18,148 nt of DNA from a virus. Taxonomy: Duplodnaviria; Heunggongvirae; Uroviricota; Caudoviricetes. Shown in pieces: positions 457 to 15,109 of the stretch. A program made the position numbers and the translations under genes. The stretch's first letter is position 1, and each line of letters begins with the position of its first letter. The notes beneath the pieces were generated by a model. The model was not told the origin of the DNA. It worked only from the letters and a program-made list of their open reading frames with translations, and searched no databases. The stretch is from IMG/VR virus record IMGVR_UViG_2703718826_000002. One strand, written 5' to 3'.

Positions 457-1308
457 ATGATAAATTATGTCTACGGCGAACAACTGTACCAGGAGTTCGT
501 CAGCTTCAGGGATCTCTTTCTAAAAAAAGCTGTTGCACGCGCCCAACACGTTGATACAGCCAGCGACGGTCGTCCTGTACGCCCGGTTGTCGTTCTACCG
601 TTCAAAGAAACTGACAGCATTCAGGCTGAAATTGATAAATGGACTTTAATGGCGCGGGAACTGGAACAGTACCCAGACCTCAATATCCCAAAGACTATTT
701 TATATCCAGTGCCTAACATCCTTCGCGGTGTGCGTAAGGTTACAACTTATCAGACAGAAGCTGTGAACAGCGTCAACATGACCGCTGGCCGCATTATTCA
801 TCTGATTGATAAGGACATTCGCATCCAAAAAAGCGCGGGGATCAATGAGCACAGTGCGAAATACATAGAGAACCTGGAAGCAACAAAAGAGCTAATGAAG
901 CAGTACCCGGAGGATGAAAAATTCCGTATGCGCGTACACGGCTTTAGCGAAACAATGCTGCGCGTCCACTACATTTCCAGTAGCCCTAACTACAATGATG
1001 GTAAATCAGTTAGTTACCATGTGCCACTGTGTGGCGTGTTTATCTGCGATGAAACTCTCCGTGATGGAATTATCATCAACGGTGAATTCGAAAAAGCAAA
1101 ATTTAGCCTTTATGACTCCATAGAACCGATCATCTGCGACCGCTGGCCGCAAGCAAAAATATATCGCCTGGCAGATATTGAAAATGTAAAAAAACAAATT
1201 GCCATCACTCGCGAAGAGAAAAAGGTTAAGTCAGCCGCATCAGTTACGCGCAGCCGTAAAACCAAGAAGGGGCAGCCAGTAAACGACAACCCCGAAAGCG
1301 CGCAATAA
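457..1308 (+). CDS. hypothetical phage/plasmid protein (283 aa) with basic C-terminal tail; possibly replication-associated
   Basis: Long ORF with strong RBS GGAGGAGG 6 nt upstream of ATG. Lys/Arg-rich C-terminus suggests nucleic-acid binding. Family assignment (RepL-like or YagK/YfjJ-like) could not be verified. Confidence 0.6.
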   Translation: MINYVYGEQLYQEFVSFRDLFLKKAVARAQHVDTASDGRPVRPVVVLPFKETDSIQAEIDKWTLMARELEQYPDLNIPKTILYPVPNILRGVRKVTTYQTEAVNSVNMTAGRIIHLIDKDIRIQKSAGINEHSAKYIENLEATKELMKQYPEDEKFRMRVHGFSETMLRVHYISSSPNYNDGKSVSYHVPLCGVFICDETLRDGIIINGEFEKAKFSLYDSIEPIICDRWPQAKIYRLADIENVKKQIAITREEKKVKSAASVTRSRKTKKGQPVNDNPESAQ

Positions 1309-1311
1309 ATT

Positions 1312-1333
1312 ATGCCCGGCATCAACCGGGCAT
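1312..1333. terminator. hairpin (8-bp stem ATGCCCGG/CCGGGCAT, 6-nt loop) between convergent genes; candidate bidirectional terminator
   Basis: Perfect inverted repeat 4 nt after the stop of the 283-aa gene; moderately U-rich flanks on both strands. Confidence 0.4.
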
Positions 1334-1558
1334 TCTTCCATTATTCAGCCGCCACCGGTTTTAACAAGCCAGCATCGAGCAGTTTACGCGTCAACCACTG
1401 CTGGCCTTTACCCGTTAATTGAGGCGTCAACCGTATCTGGTAGCCATCTTCATCATCCAGCACCACTTCTTTCACCGTGAAATACCCGCGTTGATGTACT
1501 GCTGGAACGGTACATTTTTACGGCCTCCGGACGCTATCAGAATGCCGTTCTCCCGTAA

Positions 1559-2455
1559 CTAGGCAAACAGCGCATTTTGTTTAAGTCCAACGACCTTTGC
1601 AAAATTCCCAATCAGGATCCCTTTAGCTACTGATACCCGGTCGGCAAAATCGACTTTAGAAGCGGCAGCCACCAGCTGCTGATTTAGCTGGTGGGCTTTC
1701 TGTTCCAGAAGTTGCTTTTGTTCAGCTAACTCGGCAGCCAGGCGCAGAGCTTCTGGAAGCGTCTGGGGGATTGCGACCGGTTGCTGTTCTTTTTGTCGGA
1801 AGTAGCTGTCTTCCAGTTTTTCAAAGAATGCCCATGCCTGATCGGTTTCGAGCATTTTAGCGTGACGGGCAGCTCCTCGTTCTGTCCAGAGGATGAGAGA
1901 GCGCGCTTTGGGGGAGACTGGATTTTGTGAGTAGTTTAAAGCTACCCGCAAATTTTTCAGCTCATCGCCAATAACCTTGAAAAAGTGCTTCGCTTCAACA
2001 AAGCGTACTTTGTTCTCATGATGATTCTGGCGAATGCGAATCGCTTCTGTACCATACCCCTTAGCAAGAGTTTCGGTTGTTACGACACGCACTCCCTGCC
2101 ACTCCAGAACGGGAATTTCATCCGACTGATTTTGAACAACCACCAGCTCTGATTCCTGAACTGAAGGTGCATGAACTTTTTCTGATTTAACGTTAGTAGC
2201 TTTCATTCTGTGTGCCTCCTTGCGTGCTTCGGCTGCGACGGTTGCGTAATTCAGATGCCCCTGTTCGAGCAGGTATTCGCGGATATCAGACAGCAGGATG
2301 CGGTGAACTGCGTTCTTGTCCTTTCTCCGGTAAAGTTGTTTGGTGATCATGAAGTAGTTGGCAATAACGCCCGGTATATCCCTAGTACTGATACAGGCAG
2401 TGTGCTGTTCAATTGCCTCGATCATCTCTTCACGGGTAACTAATGACGTTCTCAT
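1559..2455 (-). CDS. phage antirepressor-family protein (Ant-like; Bro-N/ORF6N-like central region and KilA-C-like C-terminus)
   Basis: 298-aa ORF. Central motif VVTTETLAKGYG...VRFVEAKHFFKV and C-terminal VSVAKGILIGNFAKVVGL resemble antirepressor domains. Start overlaps upstream ORF stop (ATGA). Confidence 0.6.
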   Translation of the reverse strand: MRTSLVTREEMIEAIEQHTACISTRDIPGVIANYFMITKQLYRRKDKNAVHRILLSDIREYLLEQGHLNYATVAAEARKEAHRMKATNVKSEKVHAPSVQESELVVVQNQSDEIPVLEWQGVRVVTTETLAKGYGTEAIRIRQNHHENKVRFVEAKHFFKVIGDELKNLRVALNYSQNPVSPKARSLILWTERGAARHAKMLETDQAWAFFEKLEDSYFRQKEQQPVAIPQTLPEALRLAAELAEQKQLLEQKAHQLNQQLVAAASKVDFADRVSVAKGILIGNFAKVVGLKQNALFA

Positions 2456-2673
2456 AGTCCCTCCTGAGCAGAAGCGTTAACAGGGAGGCACCAGTAACTG
2501 AGAGAATTGCGCAAATCGGTTGAAAAGCGGGCAGAGAAAATGCAGGGAGCGTCAGGAAGCTGAGAATGGGCCTCATCTTCTGTCGGTGCAATAACGAAGT
2601 GATAGTGACGTTTTTGGCAGGAGTAAAAGCGCCAGATAAATTCAGGATGAATTGGGGTAGGGACAGTAGCCAT
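2452..2673 (-). CDS. small protein (73 aa) translationally coupled to the antirepressor; icd-like position
   Basis: Strong RBS AAAGGAGG 8 nt upstream of ATG; ATGA overlap with the Ant-like gene, as in P1 immI icd-ant coupling. Confidence 0.5.
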   Translation of the reverse strand: MATVPTPIHPEFIWRFYSCQKRHYHFVIAPTEDEAHSQLPDAPCIFSARFSTDLRNSLSYWCLPVNASAQEGL

Positions 2674-2858
2674 AATGGCAGCCTCCTTTGACTAAGTTAA
2701 GGAGCTACCGCGTGAGGTCTCAATCTCAATGGCGGTAGCACTGACTGGGTTGAGACTACCGGCGTCAAAGGGAACCGGCCTGCCTTTCGGCAGCCCAGCC
2801 AGCACTACCATTGATTTCGGAGCTAAACGCTACGTATGGCTGTGCGATGGCATGACAC

Positions 2859-2881
2859 AAAAAAAGACGCTTTCGGCGTCT
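2859..2881 (-). terminator. intrinsic terminator (minus strand): stem GACGC/GCGTC, loop CGAAA, followed by U7
   Basis: GC stem-loop immediately followed by seven U in minus-strand sense; sits between the operator-controlled promoter at about 2990-3015 and the icd-like gene. Confidence 0.55.
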
Positions 2882-2980
2882 GTGTCGCCTTTGACATTAT
2901 CCGGGGTCTCAATCCCGGCACCCGTTTTAATGAGGTGCCTGATAAGCATAAACCGAAAATGCCTCAAGGCGCAAGAGGTC
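2882..2980 (-). ncRNA. candidate short structured transcript or leader (c4-like antisense-RNA position)
   Basis: About 100-115 nt between the predicted promoter (-10 TACATT at 2987-2992) and the terminator; contains stem-loops (CCGGG...CCCGG). No convincing protein-coding frame. Confidence 0.2.
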
Positions 2981-2986
2981 AGGTTC

Positions 2987-3029
2987 AATGTAACATCGGC
3001 AGTCAAAAAACACAATTTATTAGAGCAAG
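2987..3029 (-). promoter_or_regulatory. C1-type operator (3013-3029, CTTGCTCTAATAAATTG on minus strand, 15/17) overlapping the -35 (TTGTGT) of a promoter with -10 TACATT
   Basis: 17-mer begins 2 nt after the terminase stop codon; 17-nt spacer between hexamers. Confidence 0.5.
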
Positions 3030-3032
3030 TGT

Positions 3033-4160
3033 TTATTCATTAAGCCATGCCAGAGCTTCATCAACCTGCGCTTCGTCTTCGACGCTAAGCACTTCGTCCT
3101 GGGGAACATAATCCGCCAGCATAGCGAAACAATATGTATCCCAATGGTCTGGTGAGTGCAGGTTGAGTTTTTTCTTCATATCCTCCTTACTCATCACCTT
3201 CCATTGACCTGCGGAGTTAATCCCTACAGGGATTTTCGACGCTTCCTCAATAGTTTCATTACCCTTATCCAGTCTCATACGACCAGATTTTACGGCCTCT
3301 GCGGCTTGAACGTTGGCATAAGCACGTTTATCAAAGTACAGGCTCTTATCTTCACGGCTATGCATCTTTTTACCCCAGCGTATACGCTGTACGGTAATAC
3401 CATAATACTCGTACATCAGATCCGCCGTTGCTTTACCCAGGCCATCGCCGTCTATCGCTATGGTGATATTGGGGAATCGCTCAGGATTACATTCTGCGAA
3501 AATTTTGGCGGCAAGCTGCGTTTCTGTAACGTCTGTGTATTCCAGCATTCGATAGTTGATTACACGGCGTTTATTTCGCTGGCCGGACACCATCATGATA
3601 TTGATAAAGGACTTATCCCGTCCTGTACCACCAGCAACGTCCACACATGCAAGCCAGCCCCATCCTTTGGCAATCTTGACTTTCCGCCGCGTCGCACGTT
3701 CAACCTCATCACGTCCAAGAAGGAAGCCGTCCTGTAATTTAGGGAATAGGCCGCGTACCTTAATCATGTACATAGGGTTATCACGCCCGCCGTACTCCGC
3801 CAGCTTCATTTTGATAAATTCTGACGTTACCAGCGGTGATTCCTCACTGTTAAGCGTGATCGCCGTATAAACGCCATCTGGGTTACCAGGACGCTTGGCC
3901 AGTTTATGGTGAGTATCGTAGAAATAGCCGCTTGGGCGTGTAGGCTGTGACAGTAATAAGATGCGGTTATCCTGTCCGGTAAGAGCACCGGTGATGATAC
4001 CGAAAGCTCTATCACTGACACCGGAGGCTTCATCGATAATATACAGAAGATGATCTGCGTGTTCACCGGCGAGAACTTCTTCACTTCCCAGACGAAAGCC
4101 CTTCGGTACTACAGTCCATACACCTTTACCAGTAGACTGGCCCCCTGAATCTCCAGACAA
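3033..4160 (-). CDS. terminase large subunit, C-terminal portion (Walker B plus nuclease domain); gene interrupted upstream
   Basis: 375-aa ORF starting at a TTG; contains Walker B-like [11 protein letters not shown] and acidic nuclease-domain motifs. In-frame stop 3 codons upstream of the putative start. Confidence 0.75.
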
Positions 4161-4165
4161 CCAGT

Positions 4166-4183
4166 ATCACTTATTTAAGTGAT
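4166..4183. repeat. 18-bp perfect palindrome ATCACTTATTTAAGTGAT at the break between the two terminase ORFs
   Basis: Revcomp of ATCACTTA is TAAGTGAT; provides stop codons in all three minus-strand frames. Confidence 0.8.
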
Positions 4184-4605
4184 AACAGGTGTCTGGAAAT
4201 ATAGGGGCAAATCCAACCAGTAACCTCATAGAAAGCGGTTTCTGTCAGAACAAAATAATCAGCAAGCCATGGAAAACGGCTGGTGGCAGTAGCCCAGTTT
4301 ATCTTGATGTACTTGAATATACCGGTCATTACCTGCTGAATTTTGTTCGCAACGATAATGGCGCGGGCACCGGGATACATGATTATGAACAACATGATCA
4401 TGATAGAAGTCATGTCTGATTTCCCGGTACCGTGACCAGACGAAACAGATGTCTTGCTACCCTGTTCCTGCACAGACTCAATAATCAGATCCTGCTGCCA
4501 GGTAGGTGTTTTGCCGAACAAAACATCAGCGGCCGCAATCCAGTCATAACGATATAGCGCCACCAGCTCGCGCCAACGTGGATCCGTTACGCAACTTCTG
4601 GCCAT
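4171..4605 (-). CDS. terminase large subunit, N-terminal portion (Walker A SGHGTGKS)
   Basis: 144-aa ORF with P-loop; ends in TAA inside the palindrome. Start overlaps the stop of the upstream acidic protein (TAATG). Confidence 0.7.
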
Positions 4606-4976
4606 TAATCATCATCCCCGTATAGCTTGCGGGTAACTTCTTCGTCTTCCTCCTCGTCTTCGTCCAGGTCTTGTTCCAGCCATGGGTCGTTTGATACACC
4701 TTCAGTATCAACATCTCCATAACCGCCTGTATCAACGATATCGGCGATTTCTTCCCTACGCTGCTCAATCCACAATGCGGCATCGGCGCGGCGGTTGGCG
4801 GCCCGTTCTCGCGCAACTTTGTCCAGATCTTCAAGAGAAGGGCCACCGACGGCTGTTTGCCTTTCCTCATCATCGGTATTGGTCTTAGGAGCACGCAGAT
4901 CGGCTTTGATTTGCTCCAGCATCAGGGGCGGCACTTTCCCGCCATGCGCCTCGATGAATTCAGCTGCTTCCAGCAC
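4605..4976 (-). CDS. acidic packaging-associated protein, probably C-terminal part of a terminase small subunit
   Basis: 123-aa ORF with poly-acidic C-terminus (DEDEEEDEE); translationally coupled to the large terminase. Frame is open upstream to 5009, overlapping the 104-aa ORF. Confidence 0.45.
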
Positions 4977-5236
4977 TGACCAGTTATTTTCACGCTTTCG
5001 TTCGTACTGTCATCAATCAAAACAGACGAATACTTAGACACAGCGATAGCTTTTAAGCGCAGATAAACATCGCGCTTATCGACATCCAGATGCGGGTATT
5101 CCTTTTCAAGAATTGCTGCGAGTTCTTTCGCTGATAGAAGAGATTTAGTGCGGATCATGTAATTCGCAATCTCGTACGATGTTATTCGTGAGTGATTTAT
5201 TTCCATGAAGTGGCGTCCCTGCCAGTTAAGTAACAT
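4922..5236 (-). CDS. putative N-terminal (DNA-binding) part of the small terminase-like protein; C-terminal tail likely out of frame
   Basis: 104-aa ORF; alternative start at 5206 (MEINH...). Last 18 residues ([18 protein letters not shown]) are the alternate-frame reading of the 123-aa ORF N-terminus. Confidence 0.4.
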
Positions 5237-5281
5237 CCTGTCACCTACTGATTAGCCCATGTCAACTAATCAACGTGGAAT

Positions 5282-5323
5282 ATAATACCATCGATTAAAG
5301 AAATAGCAATACATTAGAGCAAT
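5282..5323 (-). promoter_or_regulatory. C1-type operator (5307-5323, ATTGCTCTAATGTATTG on minus strand, 14/17) overlapping promoter (-35 TTGCTA, -10 TATTAT)
   Basis: Begins immediately after the stop of the 347-aa gene and precedes the packaging genes; 16-nt spacer between hexamers. Confidence 0.45.
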
Positions 5324-5324
5324 T

Positions 5325-6368
5325 TTATCTAACGCTCGACGAGTAACTTGTGATAGCGCCGACTCCAAGCGCGTAATCAAAGAACAATCGTTGATGCATC
5401 GCCAGCCTACCGTGCGTCTTCTCCCAATTATCGCGGTCACGCTCAATATCACGCTGGCATGACTGGCACAGAGGAATTGCGTAAATGTCATGCGCGCATA
5501 ATCGACTATGACGAACGATATAAGGCGTAATGTGAGCGCCAGCTCCCGCAGCTCCACAGCCACAGCATGGACGGGAAGCCACAAAGTCCATGTACTCGGG
5601 CAATTTTAGCGATTGAAGTTTTGGTATTTTGAAATGCGCCATACCTGGGTCGGAGTCAACATCCACAGGGCATACTTTTGCACGCATCGGCGCGGCGCGT
5701 TCTTCCATCATCTGAACATATGCTGTAGCGCGATCGTCATACGGGCGAATATCCGCCTCTTTCAGAGGTCCGCTATCCTGCGGAGCAGCCTTCATCTTAT
5801 TTATTGATATGCGGCAGACTTCTTCCGGCATCAGGTGCATCATGTTACGCATGAAAGCCCACCAGCACAGCTCCTGAATACTTAAATCATGGCTATCTGA
5901 AAGGCCCATTTCCTGACGGGCGACATCCAGTATCCAGTTAACGCGATTATTGTGCAGCGTTTCTTTCAGCTCATTAAAACCACGCATCCGGTAATGGTTA
6001 TCGTGATGCCAGCACAACAACACCGCGCTATTGTCTCGTTCAGCGTGGACAATATGGTTGTCACACCAGCTACGATCTGCGGCCTGGCATTGCCCCTCTT
6101 TCCTGCGCAACCACGCCACCAGCGCGTCAATTCCACCAATACGGCGAAACAGTTCATCGCTGTTAAAAAACGGCTGCAACGCCTCATTTGTTGCTATAGT
6201 TTGCTCGGAAGCAACGAGGCCGTCGTCCATGTGCTCGATTAACTCACGCGGCACCGGCTCCATAATAAATTTACGGCCAGCCTCCACCAGCTTTCTGACC
6301 TCCTGATCCACTTTGAACGTGGCGAGGCCAAGTTCTTTCTGTACAAAGGGAGTAATTACGGCTTTCAC
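5325..6368 (-). CDS. hypothetical phage protein (347 aa) with Cys/His-rich C-terminal region (putative metal-binding)
   Basis: GTG start with AAGGTG SD; C-terminal [12 protein letters not shown]...C..C.SCQ cluster. Possibly DUF968-like or the pdcB-position gene of P1-like elements; not verified. Confidence 0.6.
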
Positions 6369-7232: not shown

Positions 7233-7296
7233 AAAGCACCAGCACTTTGCGGCTTAACAAACCTCTAGGCAGGTCATTCGTAGCCTAATGTCCGAA

Positions 7297-7325
7297 CTGC
7301 TAAAGCATCCAAGTTGCTGTAGAAT
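7297..7325 (+). promoter_or_regulatory. candidate hsdM promoter with extended -10 (TGT-TAGAAT, 7317-7325)
   Basis: TGnTAGAAT about 30 nt upstream of the hsdM ATG; weak -35. Confidence 0.3.
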
Positions 7326-7357
7326 CACCGCCAATTACATAAGCCTGAAATAAGTGG

Positions 7358-8916
7358 ATGAAAATGACAAGTATTCAACAACGTGCAGAGCTTCATCGTC
7401 AAATCTGGCAAATTGCTAACGATGTCAGAGGTTCGGTCGATGGATGGGATTTTAAGCAATACGTTCTGGGCGCGCTTTTCTACCGTTTTATCAGCGAAAA
7501 TTTTTCCAGCTATATTGAAGCCGGTGATGACAGCATCTGTTATGCGAAACTGGATGACAGCGTAATTACTGATGACATTAAAGACGATGCCATCAAAACC
7601 AAAGGCTACTTCATCTACCCAAGTCAGCTTTTCTGCAACGTAGCTGCGAAAGCAAATACCAATGACAGACTGAACGCAGATTTAAACAGCATCTTCGTTG
7701 CTATCGAAAGTTCTGCTTACGGCTACCCTTCAGAAGCAGACATCAAAGGTTTGTTTGCTGATTTCGATACCACCAGTAACCGCCTGGGTAACACCGTTAA
7801 AGATAAAAATGCCCGCCTGGCTGCGGTTCTGAAAGGGGTTGAAGGGTTAAAACTTGGTGACTTCAACGAACATCAGATTGACCTGTTCGGTGATGCCTAT
7901 GAGTTCCTGATTTCTAACTATGCGGCAAATGCCGGTAAGTCAGGCGGTGAGTTCTTTACACCGCAGCACGTCTCCAAGCTGATTGCACAACTGGCTATGC
8001 ACGGGCAGACCAACGTTAACAAAATCTACGACCCGGCAGCGGGTTCCGGCTCACTGTTGTTGCAGGCTAAAAAGCAGTTTGATAACCATATCATCGAAGA
8101 AGGCTTTTTTGGTCAGGAAATCAACCATACAACCTATAACCTGGCACGTATGAACATGTTTTTGCACAACATCAACTACGACAAGTTTGATATCAAGCTG
8201 GGTAATACACTGACTGAGCCACACTTCAGAGATGAAAAACCGTTTGATGCCATCGTTTCTAACCCGCCGTATTCGGTGAAATGGATTGGCAGCGATGACC
8301 CGACGCTGATTAACGATGAACGTTTTGCCCCGGCTGGCGTTCTGGCCCCCAAATCCAAAGCTGACTTCGCCTTTGTACTACATGCGCTGAACTATCTTTC
8401 TGCCAAAGGTCGTGCTGCGATTGTTTGCTTCCCGGGTATTTTTTACCGTGGCGGCGCGGAGCAGAAAATCCGTCAGTATCTGGTTGATAATAACTATGTC
8501 GAAACCGTGATTTCACTGGCACCGAATCTGTTCTTTGGCACCACTATTGCCGTCAATATTCTGGTGCTGTCTAAACATAAAACGGATACCAAAGTTCAGT
8601 TTATTGATGCCAGCGAATTGTTCAAAAAAGAGACTAACAACAATATCCTGACCGATGCCCATATCGAACAGATTATGCAGGTATTTGCCGGCAAGGAAGA
8701 TGTTGCCCATCTGGCGAAATCTGTTGCGTTTGAGACTGTTGTCGCGAATGACTATAACCTGTCGGTGAGCAGTTATGTTGAAGCGAAAGATACTCGCGAA
8801 ATTATCGATATCGGTGAGCTGAATGCTGAGCTGAAAACCACGGTCAGCAAAATCGACCAGTTGCGCAAAGATATTGATGCGATTGTGGCTGAAATTGAAG
8901 GCTGCGAGGTGCAGAA

Positions 8917-8920
<4 letters not shown>
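7358..8920 (+). CDS. hsdM: Type I restriction-modification system, methyltransferase subunit HsdM (Type IC, EcoR124-family)
   Basis: 520 aa; AdoMet motif [10 protein letters not shown] and N6-adenine motif NPPY (AIVSNPPYS); N-terminus matches recalled EcoR124I HsdM. Stop overlaps hsdS start (ATGA). Confidence 0.95.
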
Positions 8921-10152
<1,232 letters not shown>

Positions 10153-10159
10153 TTGAGCA

Positions 10160-10273
10160 TTTTTACAGACCGGACCACCTTAACATCCGGTCAGTATATA
10201 GACTATTTTCTACACGCCGGAAGTCGCCCTTAACTCCCTTCCGGCCCTTGCCAGACGGCACAAAGGATGCGCT
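10160..10273 (+). promoter_or_regulatory. hsdS-hsdR intergenic region with two inverted repeats (GACCGGA...TCCGGTC; GCCGGAAG...CTTCCGGC); candidate hsdR promoter/regulatory region
   Basis: 121-bp gap, consistent with Type IC organisation in which hsdR has its own promoter; no strong sigma70 hexamers identified. Confidence 0.3.
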
Positions 10274-13200
10274 ATGACTCATCAAACACACACCATTGCT
10301 GAATCCAATAACTTTATCGTCCTTGATAAGTACATCAAAGCTGAGCAAACAGGCGACAGCTACCAGAGCGAATCGGACCTGGAACGTGAACTGATTCAGG
10401 ACCTGCGGAATCAGGGCTATGAATTTATATCCGTAAAATCACAGTCGGCGATGCTAGCCAATGTTCGGGAACAGCTTCAGAACCTCAATGGTGTGGTGTT
10501 TAATGACAGCGAGTGGCGGCGTTTCACGGAGCAGTATCTGGATAACCCGAGCGATGGCATTCTGGATAAGACCCGTAAAATCCATATCGACTATATTTGC
10601 GACTTTATTTTTGATGACGAGCGTCTTGAGAACATCTATTTGATAGATAAAAAGAATCTCATGCGCAATAAGGTGCAGATTATCCAGCAGTTTGAACAGA
10701 CGGGTTCTCATGCTAACCGTTATGACGTCACGATCCTGGTTAATGGTTTACCGCTGGTGCAAATCGAACTAAAAAAACGCGGGGTGGCGATTCGTGAGGC
10801 TTTCAACCAGATACATCGTTACAGTAAAGAGAGTTTTAACAGCGAAAATTCCCTGTTTAAGTATCTGCAGCTGTTCGTCATTTCCAACGGCACTGATACC
10901 CGTTATTTTGCCAACACCACAAAGCGCGATAAAAACAGTTTTGACTTCACCATGAACTGGGCTAAATCAGACAATACACTGATTAAAGACCTCAAAGACT
11001 TTACCGCTACCTTTTTCCAGAAACATACTCTGCTTAATGTTCTGGTGAACTACAGCGTTTTTGACAGCAGTCAGACACTACTGGTAATGCGACCGTACCA
11101 GATTGCCGCCACCGAGCGCATTCTGTGGAAAATTAAGAGTTCCTTTACAGCGAAGAACTGGTCAAAACCGGAAAGCGGTGGGTATATCTGGCACACTACC
11201 GGTTCTGGTAAAACCCTCACCAGCTTTAAAGCCGCGCGTCTGGCAACAGAGCTGGACTTTATTGATAAAGTCTTCTTTGTGGTCGACAGGAAAGACCTCG
11301 ATTACCAGACCATGAAGGAATATCAGCGTTTTTCGCCAGACAGCGTCAACGGCTCGGAAAATACCGCAGGTCTTAAACGAAATCTGGATAAGGACGATAA
11401 CAAAATTATCGTCACTACTATTCAGAAACTCAATAACCTGATGAAAGCAGAAAGCGATCTGCCTGTATATAATCAGCAAGTGGTGTTTATATTTGATGAA
11501 TGCCACCGCAGCCAGTTTGGAGAAGCGCAGAAAAACCTGAAGAAGAAATTCAAACGCTATTATCAGTTTGGTTTTACCGGCACCCCTATTTTCCCGGAAA
11601 ACGCCTTAGGCTCAGAAACAACCGCCAGCGTATTTGGTCGTGAATTGCATTCGTATGTAATTACCGATGCGATTCGTGACGAAAAAGTGCTCAAATTCAA
11701 GGTGGACTACAACGATGTGCGGCCACAGTTTAAGTCTTTAGAGACAGAAACTGACGAGAAAAAACTGAGTGCGGCTGAAAATCAGCAGGCGTTTCTTCAT
11801 CCCATGCGTATTCAGGAAATCACGCAATATATTCTGAATAATTTCCGCCAGAAAACCCACCGTACCTTCCCTGGCTCAAAAGGTTTTAATGCTATGTTGG
11901 CAGTGAGCAGCGTGGATGCCGCGAAAGCCTATTATGCGACGTTTAAACGGTTACAAGAAGAAGCCGCTAATAAATCGGCTACCTATAAACCGCTGCGTAT
12001 TGCGACAATCTTCTCCTTTGCCGCCAATGAAGAACAAAATGCCATTGGTGAAATTTCCGATGAAACTTTTGATACCAGCGCAATGGACAGCAGTGCTAAA
12101 GAGTTTCTGGACGCTGCAATTCGTGAATATAACAGCCATTTTAAAACTAACTTTAGCACCGACAGTAACGGTTTTCAGAACTACTATCGTGATTTAGCCC
12201 AGCGGGTTAAAAATCAGGATATCGATCTGCTAATTGTCGTGGGGATGTTTTTAACCGGCTTCGATGCTCCAACATTAAACACGCTATTCGTCGATAAAAA
12301 CTTGCGTTTTCACGGCCTGATGCAGGCATTCTCCCGCACCAACCGCATTTATGACGCGACTAAAACCTTCGGTAATATTGTCACGTTCCGGGATCTGGAA
12401 CGCTCAACCATTGATGCCATAACGCTGTTTGGTGACAAAAATACCAAAAATGTGGTTTTAGAAAAGAGTTATGCAGAGTATATGGAAGGCTTTACTGATG
12501 CTGCCACTGGTGAAGCTAAACGCGGCTTCATGACAGTAGTTTCAGAACTGGAACAACGGTTCCCTGACCCTACCAGTATTGAAAGTGAAAAAGAGAAGAA
12601 AGACTTCGTTAAACTGTTTGGCGAATACCTGCGTGCCGAGAACATCCTGCAAAACTATGATGAATTTGCCACGCTAAAAGCCCTGCAACAAATCGATCTT
12701 AGCGATCCTGTTGCGGTAGAAAAATTCAAAGCAGAACATTATGTGGATAATGAAAAGTTCGCTGAATTGCAAACAATTCGTCTCCCTGCTGATCGCAAGA
12801 TTCAGGATTATCGTTCTGCCTATAACGATATTCGCGACTGGCAGCGCCGTGAGAAAGAAGCTGAGAAAAAAGAGAAATCAACCACTGACTGGGATGACGT
12901 AGTTTTTGAGGTCGATTTGCTGAAGTCTCAGGAAATAAACCTGGATTATATCCTTGGACTGATTTTCGAACACAATAGACAAAATAAAGGCAAGGGCGAA
13001 ATGATCGAAGAGGTCAAACGCTTAATTCGTTCAAGCCTGGGGAACCGGGCGAAAGAGGGCCTGGTGGTCGATTTTATTCAGCAAACGAACCTGGATGATT
13101 TACCAGACAAAGCCAGTATCATTGAGGCATTCTTTACGTTTGCTCAACGCGAACAGCAACGTGAAGCAGAAGCATTGATAAAAGAAGAAAATCTCAATGA

Positions 13201-13390
13201 AGATGCAGCAAAACGCTATATTCGCACGTCTTTAAAACGCGAATACGCCACCGAAAATGGCACAGAATTAAACGAAACATTACCAAAACTTAGTCCGTTG
13301 AATCCGCAATATAAAACGAAAAAACAGGCAGTTTTCCAGAAAATCGTCTCGTTTATTGAGAAGTTTAAAGGCGTAGGCGGAAAAATATAG
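10274..13390 (+). CDS. hsdR: Type I R-M restriction subunit HsdR (Type IC; PD-(D/E)xK nuclease plus SF2 helicase motor)
   Basis: 1038 aa; nuclease motif VQIELKK, Walker A TGSGKT, DEAH-like FDECHRS; size matches recalled EcoR124I HsdR. Confidence 0.95.
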
Positions 13391-13406
13391 CCCAATTCGT
13401 ATTTTT

Positions 13407-13434
13407 CTTGCGGGTTCTTAATTAAACCCGCAAG
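13407..13434. terminator. hairpin (9-10-bp stem CTTGCGGGT/ACCCGCAAG) 17 nt after hsdR stop, without U-tract; possible terminator or RNA-stabilising stem
   Basis: Perfect inverted repeat; A-rich rather than U-rich 3' flank on either strand. Confidence 0.3.
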
Positions 13435-13469
13435 AGACCGTGGGGTTCCAAATGGCTAATATACTCCCC

Positions 13470-13638: not shown

Positions 13639-13655
13639 AGATTTATTAGAGCAAT
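13639..13655 (-). promoter_or_regulatory. C1-type operator (ATTGCTCTAATAAATCT on minus strand, 16/17 to consensus)
   Basis: Best consensus match in the window; immediately follows the TAA stop of the HAD gene; promoter-like TTGATT-N17-GAAAAT downstream. Confidence 0.55.
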
Positions 13656-14161
13656 TATTGTTGATGGAGAAGCGCGTTTCCATACTCCCTGACCATTAAC
13701 GTAAGTACGCCGTGACTCCTGAAAACACGCGCCACTTCAATCTTATCTTCCAGCGCGAACGCAATTTTACTTAGACCAATTTTCTTCAGGAGATCAATCT
13801 TTGCTGGACCGTCATTTCTGTCATCGGTGGCAGGACGCATAGATAGCAAAGGCTCAGCCCCATTTGTTACGTGCTTACGCAACCAGGCTCGTGTTTTATC
13901 CCTGGCTATCTCACAGCGCCCGGTTACAAACCAGAGGGTGTAAATGCCGGACAACTGGCGCACCATATCAATAACTGGAGTGATGGGAGCATCAGTGTCA
14001 CAGGCAAGGTTAAACTCGTTCCAGTGCTCTGTTAATGCACCTTTGCCAGGTGGTGGAAGTAAATGCAGCCTGTCTTCCGTTGCCTCTGATATCGTCCCAT
14101 CAATATCTACTATGACGATGTACGGACGTTCCTGGTGTGCGTGTTTATTGAAAATACTCAA
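13655..14161 (-). CDS. HAD-superfamily phosphatase (polynucleotide 3'-phosphatase / nucleotidase-like)
   Basis: 168 aa; HAD motif I VDIDGT, later conserved T/S, K and DD motifs; TTG start with GGAGG SD. Confidence 0.6.
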   Translation of the reverse strand: MSIFNKHAHQERPYIVIVDIDGTISEATEDRLHLLPPPGKGALTEHWNEFNLACDTDAPITPVIDMVRQLSGIYTLWFVTGRCEIARDKTRAWLRKHVTNGAEPLLSMRPATDDRNDGPAKIDLLKKIGLSKIAFALEDKIEVARVFRSHGVLTLMVREYGNALLHQQ

Positions 14162-14180: not shown

Positions 14181-14213
14181 AAAAAAATGCTGGTGGGAGC
14201 ACTCCACCAGCAT
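14181..14213 (-). terminator. rho-independent terminator (minus strand): 10-bp stem ATGCTGGTGG/CCACCAGCAT, 7-nt loop, then U6-7
   Basis: Perfect stem followed by a U-run in minus-strand sense, between the truncated orfA-like ORF and the HAD gene. Confidence 0.6.
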
Positions 14214-14233
14214 TAAAAGTGACACTGTAACTA

Positions 14234-14460
14234 TCAGCGAACGTAAATAGTGCCGCCGTTCTCTTTTTCCCATGCATCGCTACGTGCATAGCAAACATCG
14301 AGAAGTCTTCTTGCCGCAGTTTCCTCTACCCCAGCTTCGGCTTCGCGGAGAATACTGATGATCTGTTCGTCGGAAAAACGCTTCTTCATGGGGATGTCCT
14401 CATGTGGCTTATGAAGACATTACTAACATCGGGGTGTACTAATCAACGGGGAGCAGGTCA
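14234..14460 (-). mobile_element. IS3-family (IS407-like) left-end remnant: terminal repeat-like TGACCTGCTCCCC plus truncated orfA (51 codons)
   Basis: Minus strand from 14460 begins TGACCTGC...; ORF 14234-14389 starts MKKRFSDEQIISILREAEAG (typical IS3 OrfA N-terminus) with GAGGA SD, diverges, and stops after a conserved GG. Confidence 0.4.
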
Positions 14461-14889
14461 AACCATCGCGGTCATTTCATTGAGTTTTGTTTCCAGCTCA
14501 ATGCTTATACGTTCGGCATTATCAGCACGCTGGTTGGCGTCATGCGTCGCATCGTCGATCGCGTCCTGTTGCTGGCGTTTCAAATGTTCAATTTGCAGCT
14601 GAAGCTCTTCAATTTCTTTACCCTTCAGACCGAGATCCAACTGCATATTTTCAGCTGCATCTACCAGGGAGTTATGGCTATCAGCTTCTGCGTTATAAAC
14701 ATCAATAAGCTGTGCGTGAAGCATCTCCGCTGACTGAACCGCATTATCAAAAAAACGTGCTGTGAGGTCATCACAACTAACGCGGCGTTGCGCGGCCCGG
14801 ATGTTCTGGATAATGGCCGGGATACCGGCATTCAGGACATCAGGGATAGATACATTTTCGATTGATTGGTTTTGTGCTGAAGTGCTCAT
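14458..14889 (-). CDS. hypothetical coiled-coil protein (143 aa)
   Basis: Intact ORF with heptad-rich, Gln/Glu-rich C-terminal half; abuts the 72-aa ORF. Confidence 0.45.
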   Translation of the reverse strand: MSTSAQNQSIENVSIPDVLNAGIPAIIQNIRAAQRRVSCDDLTARFFDNAVQSAEMLHAQLIDVYNAEADSHNSLVDAAENMQLDLGLKGKEIEELQLQIEHLKRQQQDAIDDATHDANQRADNAERISIELETKLNEMTAMV

Positions 14890-14890
14890 T

Positions 14891-15109
14891 TCAAAGTTCC
14901 GTATTAGCTTGTGCTTCGGTCATTTTTCCTAAGTATGAAGGTGGAAGGACTACGCAATTTGTATCCAGTCCCTCACCTATGGCAGCCTGTAAAATTCTGG
15001 CTAAGGTGAGTCTCTTGTTGCGATACCTGGTGATGACATGCCTGATACCGCCGGTCGGCGTAACAAAGGCGATCAGCCAGTAGTGATATTTCCGTCGGAA
15101 TGGCCACAT
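14891..15109 (-). CDS. hypothetical small protein (72 aa)
   Basis: ORF with AAGGTG SD; first gene downstream of the dual-operator/terminator element. Confidence 0.4.
   Translation of the reverse strand: MWPFRRKYHYWLIAFVTPTGGIRHVITRYRNKRLTLARILQAAIGEGLDTNCVVLPPSYLGKMTEAQANTEL

Follow-up and report, generated by a model that had tools for sequence, protein, structure and literature searches.

An ISSen4 left-end stub within a deleted pmgS pseudogene of a P1-like phage-plasmid of Escherichia coli

The window, i.e. the whole stretch of 18,148 nucleotides that was analysed, is contig LONL01000117.1 of the E. coli draft genome GCA_001575835.1 and, judged by its sequence, forms part of a P1-like phage-plasmid of that species. 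Colinearity with phage P1 extends from coi/c1 across pacB/pacA and lpa-pdcB-doc-phd, and from pap back to pmgM. According to the P1 annotation, pmgS (P1_gp093, "putative morphogenetic function") sits between pmgR and pap and measures 1263 bp, or 420 codons. Both the pmgR-pmgS-pap synteny and the high identity to P1 pmgS (about 98–99% at the DNA level) are present in the window, where codons 1–143 and 391–420 are kept in their place between the two neighbouring genes. In contrast to P1, the complete 420-codon frame is absent: codons 144–390 are missing and the frame is closed after codon 143, with the stub of an insertion sequence (IS) in place of the missing codons, which makes the gene a pseudogene. 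The features of the locus are as follows.

15109..14891, minus strand: pmgR, intact, 72 aa, immediately upstream in the pmgS operon (ORF list, P1 annotation).
14458..14889, minus strand: 5' fragment of pmgS (pmgS'), codons 1–143 of P1 pmgS plus a TGA stop from the first three bases of the IS.
14327..14460, minus strand: ISSen4 remnant, nt 1–134, comprising the left inverted repeat, the 5' leader and orfA codons 1–21.
14434..14460 (extent approximate), minus strand: left terminal inverted repeat (IRL), TGACCTGCTCCCCGTTGATTAGTACAC, compared with the right end of a full copy, reverse-complemented, TGACCTGCCCCCACGATTAGATACAAC.
14234..14389, minus strand: accidental chimeric ORF of 51 aa, OrfA residues 1–21 fused in frame to PmgS residues 391–420, with the native pmgS stop.
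14327..14328, minus strand: deletion junction, with the dinucleotide TA common to IS nt 133–134 and pmgS nt 1169–1170 (base-by-base comparison with the IS, P1 and the related contig L026).
14234..14326, minus strand: 3' fragment of pmgS, codons 391–420 and the stop.
14186..14214, minus strand: native pmgS intrinsic terminator hairpin, 11 pairs of which 6 are G-C, then the T-run TTTTTCG (terminator scan), within the P1-colinear stretch.
14161..13655, minus strand: pap, intact, 168 aa, downstream and outside the deletion (ORF list, P1 annotation, Pfam HAD_PNKP).

On the minus strand, positions 14950..14453 are P1 DNA (98.8% identical by BLAST) ending in pmgS codon 143, and the translation of the 143-aa ORF equals PmgS residues 1–143 except at residue 2. 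Positions 14460..14327 match nt 1–134 of a full-length IS of 1221 bp without a single difference (BLAST), the reference copies that match the remnant at 100% being those of phage mEp234 (L002, 2148–2281) and of two related contigs, L022 and L030. The remnant begins TGACCTGCTCCCC at 14460, and the TGA found there is the stop of the ORF 14889..14458; the tip of the IS supplies this codon, and thus the pmgS frame closes after codon 143. From 14328 to 14100 the window is again P1 DNA, entered at pmgS codon 390/391 and 98.3% identical to P1 (L001, 3001–3229) and 100% identical to L030. Other pieces of the IS, including a right end or a target-site duplication, were found nowhere else in the window. 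The feature, a stub of the left end of ISSen4 in a pmgS pseudogene with a deletion, is ordinary and already known in kind.

This anatomy redraws parts of the initial annotation of the DNA. The elements that it had quoted (a repeat starting with TG, its overlap with a TGA, an OrfA-like ORF start and a terminator) are all in the sequence. The extent that it gave to the IS remnant, 14234–14460, is correct for the 134 bp from 14327 to 14460, whereas 14234–14328 is the native 3' end of P1 pmgS (98% identical). It had placed the IS immediately after the stop codon of a gene; instead, the IS interrupts pmgS after codon 143 and itself provides the stop. The orfA that it described as cut off after about 50 codons retains 21, the other 30 being PmgS residues 391–420 read in their own frame, and the "strong terminator" after this ORF is indeed a hairpin (14214..14186), but the one native to pmgS.

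The proposal of a left end from an IS3-family (IS407-type) element with a cut orfA was supported both by the 134/134-nt match and by the NCBI PGAP label of full copies identical to the remnant, "IS3-like element ISSen4 family transposase" with programmed frameshift. The name ISSen4 as used here rests on this PGAP label of copies that are 100% identical to the window fragment. Full copies carry an orfA of 87 aa (Pfam HTH_Tnp_1) and an orfB of 276 aa (Pfam rve) joined by a −1 programmed frameshift, and a protein search returned a large OrfA family, typical of IS3. Those in L002, L022 and L030 have TG...CA ends, starting TGACCTGCTCCCC and finishing GGGGGCAGGTCA. Compared with the 1221-bp element, the window is identical in the TG-initiated left repeat, the leader and the orfA start (MKKRFSDEQIISILREAEAGV), but is without 89% of it, namely 66 of the 87 orfA codons, all of orfB and the right repeat; what remains, the left repeat alone (14460..~14434) and orfA codons 1–21, is immobile and non-autonomous. 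Intact 1221-bp copies occur in phage mEp234 as well as in numerous genomes of E. coli. The arrival of a host IS in a dispensable phage-plasmid gene and its later decay resemble other IS insertions and remnants of P1-family genomes (IS1 in P1, the IS903 annotated in P7) and deletions associated with IS elements generally.

Members of the IS407 group generate a 4-bp target-site duplication on insertion. For ISSen4 such duplications are GGTT in L022, at the same site as in the window, where the second copy has been deleted, and CCAG in L096. The latter (NZ_CP034659.1, a 454-kb plasmid of E. coli ATCC 98082), whose P1-like backbone is more divergent and has the same hsdR, contains at 4318–5538 a second, independent ISSen4 insertion in pmgS, in the same orientation after pmgS nt 318. 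Taken together with the insertion at the window site, it implies that pmgS has been struck by ISSen4 at least twice.

Relatives of the window were found by looking up the exact products of the two ORFs, of 143 and 51 aa, in public assemblies, and they provide an allelic series of the locus. The unoccupied site is seen in L026, which has an intact 420-aa pmgS beside the same pap and hsdR on a backbone 99.4–99.7% identical to the window. The occupied site is seen in L022, where a complete IS lies at the same nucleotide with GGTT on both sides (...gcgatGGTT/TGACCTGC...GGCAGGTCA/GGTTgaactgcgg, the slash marking a junction here and below); this contig has a separate 275-bp deletion farther downstream, from pmgS nt 1133 into pap (5665–5666). 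L030 also has a complete IS, accompanied by a 388-bp deletion flush with its right end (5099–5100), and both of its flanks are 100% identical to the window. The L037-type allele is the converse of the window allele, in that it keeps the right part of the IS (nt 133/135–1221), GGTT and the whole remainder of pmgS, while a 451-bp deletion (3405–3406) has taken pmgS nt 113–429 and IS nt 1–132/134, creating an 84-aa OrfA with a foreign N-terminus. Finally, the right junction of the ancestor should give rise to a 283-aa ORF that spans the right end of the IS, GGTT and pmgS from codon 144 onward, and precisely this ORF is present on at least 20 contigs.

All 10 loci fetched for the window allele itself share the same 321-nt scar; seven come from NCBI isolate assemblies, two from ENA gut metagenomes and one from a Logan read-set assembly. 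Their identity to the window reaches 99.95% or more over pmgM-hsdS, and L008 and L009 are 99.70–99.73% identical on the hsdS-to-lpa side. Neither junction, nor the full-IS allele, is on record in the complete E. coli genomes, PLSDB plasmids and INPHARED phages searched, and the exact junction patterns had no match in IMG/VR. Among the GTDB representative genomes junction A was not found, and the 20-mer of junction B gave two matches in unrelated MAGs, which equals the chance expectation.

These data support the view that the feature is an inert scar left in pmgS of a P1-like phage-plasmid by two successive events, first an IS insertion and then a deletion, a reading to which we assign a probability of roughly 0.93. 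The initial annotation had proposed the same order of insertion and deletion, and the full IS with its 4-bp duplication at the same site in L022, together with the ancestral ORF on at least 20 contigs, upholds it; of the right end and target-site duplication that it suggested seeking elsewhere in the replicon, the window has no right end, and the GGTT duplication is seen in the relative L022. In the first step, a 1221-bp ISSen4 (IS407-type) transposed between pmgS codons 143 and 144, in the same orientation as the gene, duplicating GGTT. In the second, a single deletion removed most of orfA, all of orfB, the right repeat, the second GGTT and pmgS codons 144–390; measured against the reconstructed ancestor, the window allele has lost 1832 bp, corresponding to IS nt 135–1221, the second GGTT and pmgS nt 430–1170. 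The outcome is an IS stub without transposase and right end, hence immobile, and a pmgS split into fragments of 143 and 30 codons.

Relatives document the first step, and the product of the second is seen in the window itself, whereas the mechanism of the deletion we infer. The window junction shares TA and has 7 of 13 matching nucleotides on the upstream side (null mean 3.3) and no homology on the downstream side, and this imperfect, upstream-only homology with the shared TA fits an illegitimate, slippage-type joining. The joining at TA may thus have come about by RecA-independent illegitimate recombination, e.g. by template switching of a nascent 3' end. The sister allele L030, with its deletion flush with the IS end, fits the classical "adjacent deletion" of insertion sequences; the window deletion is unlike such a transposase-end-mediated event in that one of its ends lies within the IS, at nt 134/135, and the other within pmgS. 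We pieced the order of events together from overlapping alleles, since each relative with a full IS or a right half has a deletion of its own and no direct ancestor, with the complete IS, its duplication and all of the remaining pmgS on a single contig, was found among the relatives.

Three other explanations of the locus were weighed against this two-step scar. The junctions could be an artefact of assembly in a chimeric contig, given that the draft genome behind the window was assembled from short reads and that assemblies are often broken or confused by IS elements; indeed, three contigs from other samples (L019, L020 and L021, of 31.7, 91.9 and 98.3 kb) terminate no more than 1 nt away from the point in pmgS where the IS inserted. 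The independent assembly of the same 321-nt scar from the isolates, metagenomes and read set listed above, and a junction overlap of just 2 nt, far under any assembler k-mer, render an artefact extremely improbable. The ends of the three contigs at the insertion site are as expected if a multi-copy IS begins there. The chance that the 51-aa or the 143-aa ORF is a genuine small gene rather than debris is, in our judgement, similarly negligible. The 51-codon ORF starts at an ATG at 14389 (IS nt 72) with MKKRFSDEQIISILREAEAG and ends at 14234; it has a plausible Shine-Dalgarno sequence (GAGGA, 7 nt upstream), runs in frame into a natural C-terminus with a real terminator at its end, and is labelled a hypothetical protein in several GenBank assemblies. 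Its two halves are nevertheless 100% IS and about 98% pmgS sequence that meet at the deletion junction, it retains just 21 residues of the OrfA HTH domain, and the remnant contains no promoter-like site. The in-frame joining of the 21 OrfA codons with the PmgS C-terminal fragment would be expected by chance in one case out of three. Rather than being conserved as an independent small gene in related phages, the ORF is confined to one near-clonal, scar-bearing lineage, in which its exact product forms a single-sequence cluster on 14 contigs (24 contigs read); neither it nor the junctions occur in 5,426 complete E. coli genomes, 72,556 plasmids (PLSDB) and 50,697 phage records (INPHARED), and no Pfam match is recorded for the product. 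If the two ORFs are expressed at all, transcription would have to start at the pmgR promoter, which C1 controls, and neither the 143-aa nor the 51-aa product is expected to have a function.

The third alternative, raised by the initial annotation, sees in the remnant a recombination scar where P1 DNA meets foreign DNA, one that would account for the mosaicism of the window. The window is certainly mosaic: its alignment with P1 is discontinuous at about 1307/3033, 5004, 7257 and 13466, there is a non-P1 stretch at 1308–3032, pacA/pacB are divergent, and a type I hsdM-hsdS-hsdR block (7258–13465, with the genes for HsdM, HsdS and HsdR at 7358–13390 and Pfam EcoR124_C in HsdR) replaces the P1 pmgT-humD segment between phd/doc and pap, ending just 0.9 kb from the IS. 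Yet both flanks of the scar are colinear P1 DNA (98.3% and 96.3% identical), only the internal part of pmgS is missing, and pap and its upstream region are intact between the scar and the hsd block. Moreover, pmgS is intact beside the same hsd block in phage phi456 (1263 bp) and in contig L026. The replaced pmgT-humD segment is one of eight hypervariable regions of P1-like plasmids (PMC9603915), and the P1 annotation records these flanks as homologous to the DNA on either side of the EcoDXXI and R124 hsd loci; the window block resembles these type IC loci (EcoR124/EcoDXXI) in being flanked by P1-homologous DNA. A role of the scar in the mosaicism is thus very unlikely, and the hsd block is context only, neither part of the scar nor caused by it.

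Further observations concern these divergent stretches. The 1.7 kb between c1 and pacB (1308–3032) has no P1 match, and related phages annotate antirepressor genes thereabouts. The pacB/pacA genes (3033–5006) are 82–83% identical to P1, with neighbouring genes at 95–98%. Within the hsd block, hsdS (8917–10152, 411 aa) consists of two near-identical halves, in which a 489-bp direct repeat (8931–9419 and 9540–10028) is 99.2% identical with a period of 609 bp. Many sister contigs stop in hsdS, within or just before the repeat. A half-size hsdS of 208 aa is found instead in L008 and L009, which have the window-type allele, and in L039, which is of the L037 type; its presence in both allele types points to repeated gain or loss of one repeat unit, and such gain or loss would change restriction specificity.

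The insertion-and-deletion reading leaves the position of the break within the IS to be considered. ISSen4 is broken at GGGGTA/CCCGCCC (nt 134/135) in five independent contexts and in both directions. Two of these are the window allele (14327–14328) and the L037-type allele (3405–3406), which are broken at the same IS nucleotide in opposite directions. The others were found by sampling partial ISSen4 copies in complete E. coli genomes: a 304-kb plasmid (L098, ~2503–2504, ...GGCGGTA/CCCGCCCG), a chromosome (L099, ~2603–2604, ...GCTGGGGTA/ACCAAC) and a chromosomal island (L100, ~2507–2508, ...GCGGTTA/CCCGCCCG). A sixth deletion, that of L022, starts at the only other TACCCGCC of the locus, inside pmgS, and the three junctions within the pmgS locus (window, L037 and L022) each share exactly TA. 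Identity of an 8-nt breakpoint context by chance has a probability of about 1.6e-5 per offset. The recurrence of the break in four contexts besides the window argues against a purely random illegitimate event. With regard to frequency, nt 134/135 is the end point of two of the roughly eight high-identity partial copies sampled from complete E. coli genomes, and this truncation was seen in none of 51 ISSen4 copies in viral contigs and at none of about 12 partial endpoints sampled in plasmids.

It is conceivable, then, that ISSen4 nt 134/135 (GGGG-TA/CCCGCCC) is a fragile or recombinogenic point and that the window deletion is one product of an undescribed site-directed process. The agents proposed are a nick or double-strand break, a nuclease or topoisomerase site, and a side reaction of the transposase. 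Although five truncations at one nucleotide, and the sixth at the pmgS copy of TACCCGCC, speak for such a process, we regard it as doubtful, since the break point did not recur in the viral-contig and plasmid samples, the upstream-side homology at the junctions is predicted by ordinary slippage too, and every candidate agent tested failed. Action of the Cin invertase at quasi-cix sites was suggested by the constant 2-bp TA overlap, but the similarity of the five breakpoints to cix 26-mers does not exceed that of random positions. A cryptic internal IR-like end is disfavoured, as the site scores below several internal matches and the best internal score is not above that of shuffles (P = 0.42), and for cryptic-end transposition the truncated copies are without duplications of their own. 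Stalling at a hairpin likewise failed, the folds being no more stable than those of shuffles, with no stable single-strand hairpin. A two-step route via the 8-bp repeat TACCCGCC predicts an intermediate that is not on record, which is a weak argument given that ORFs of 33 aa are rarely called. Nor do the sequences fit Chi-like protection, restriction cuts of the KpnI/BstEII type, secondary sites of integrons, or the consensus of either RuvC or Topo I. In an OrfA protein search for right-half truncations, all 120 matches listed were near-full-length homologues. The nucleotide pair 134/135 is a possible IS-intrinsic hotspot, and the verdict on the scar as an insertion followed by a deletion is unchanged by it. 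A 95%-identical ISSen4-like copy (L101, NZ_AP024560.1) has a 6-nt deletion near IS nt 122–134 (GAAGCCG[AAGCTG]GGGTACCC), adjoining the recurrent breakpoint.

The loss of pmgS can be viewed against what is known of the gene in P1. It is non-essential for plaque formation, as judged by CRISPRi (EOP 1.2) and a knockout library (PMC10695390), and pmgR is essential (PMC9024508). The dispensability of pmgS for plaques and the integrity of pmgR and pap in the window explain how the allele was tolerated and spread clonally with the plasmid; the window allele is a tolerated pseudogene. In one survey pmgS was full length in 77 of 77 P1-like phage-plasmids (PMC9603915), in contrast to the broken gene of the window, and its loss may carry a cost unseen by plaque assays.

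In practical terms, the 143-aa and 51-aa "hypothetical proteins" should be re-annotated as a pmgS pseudogene and an ISSen4 fragment, and the scar can serve as a clonal marker, identifying a single hsd-carrying lineage of P1-like phage-plasmids that occurs in isolates of E. coli and in metagenomes of the human gut. If the hotspot at nt 134/135 were real, it would suggest a sequence-specific route of IS inactivation instead of random decay. With an unoccupied site, a full IS with its duplication and four different deletions, the locus offers an unusually complete record of an IS insertion and its stepwise erosion. It is also a natural experiment, in which a P1-like plasmid persists and spreads without pmgS despite the full-length gene in every member of the survey.
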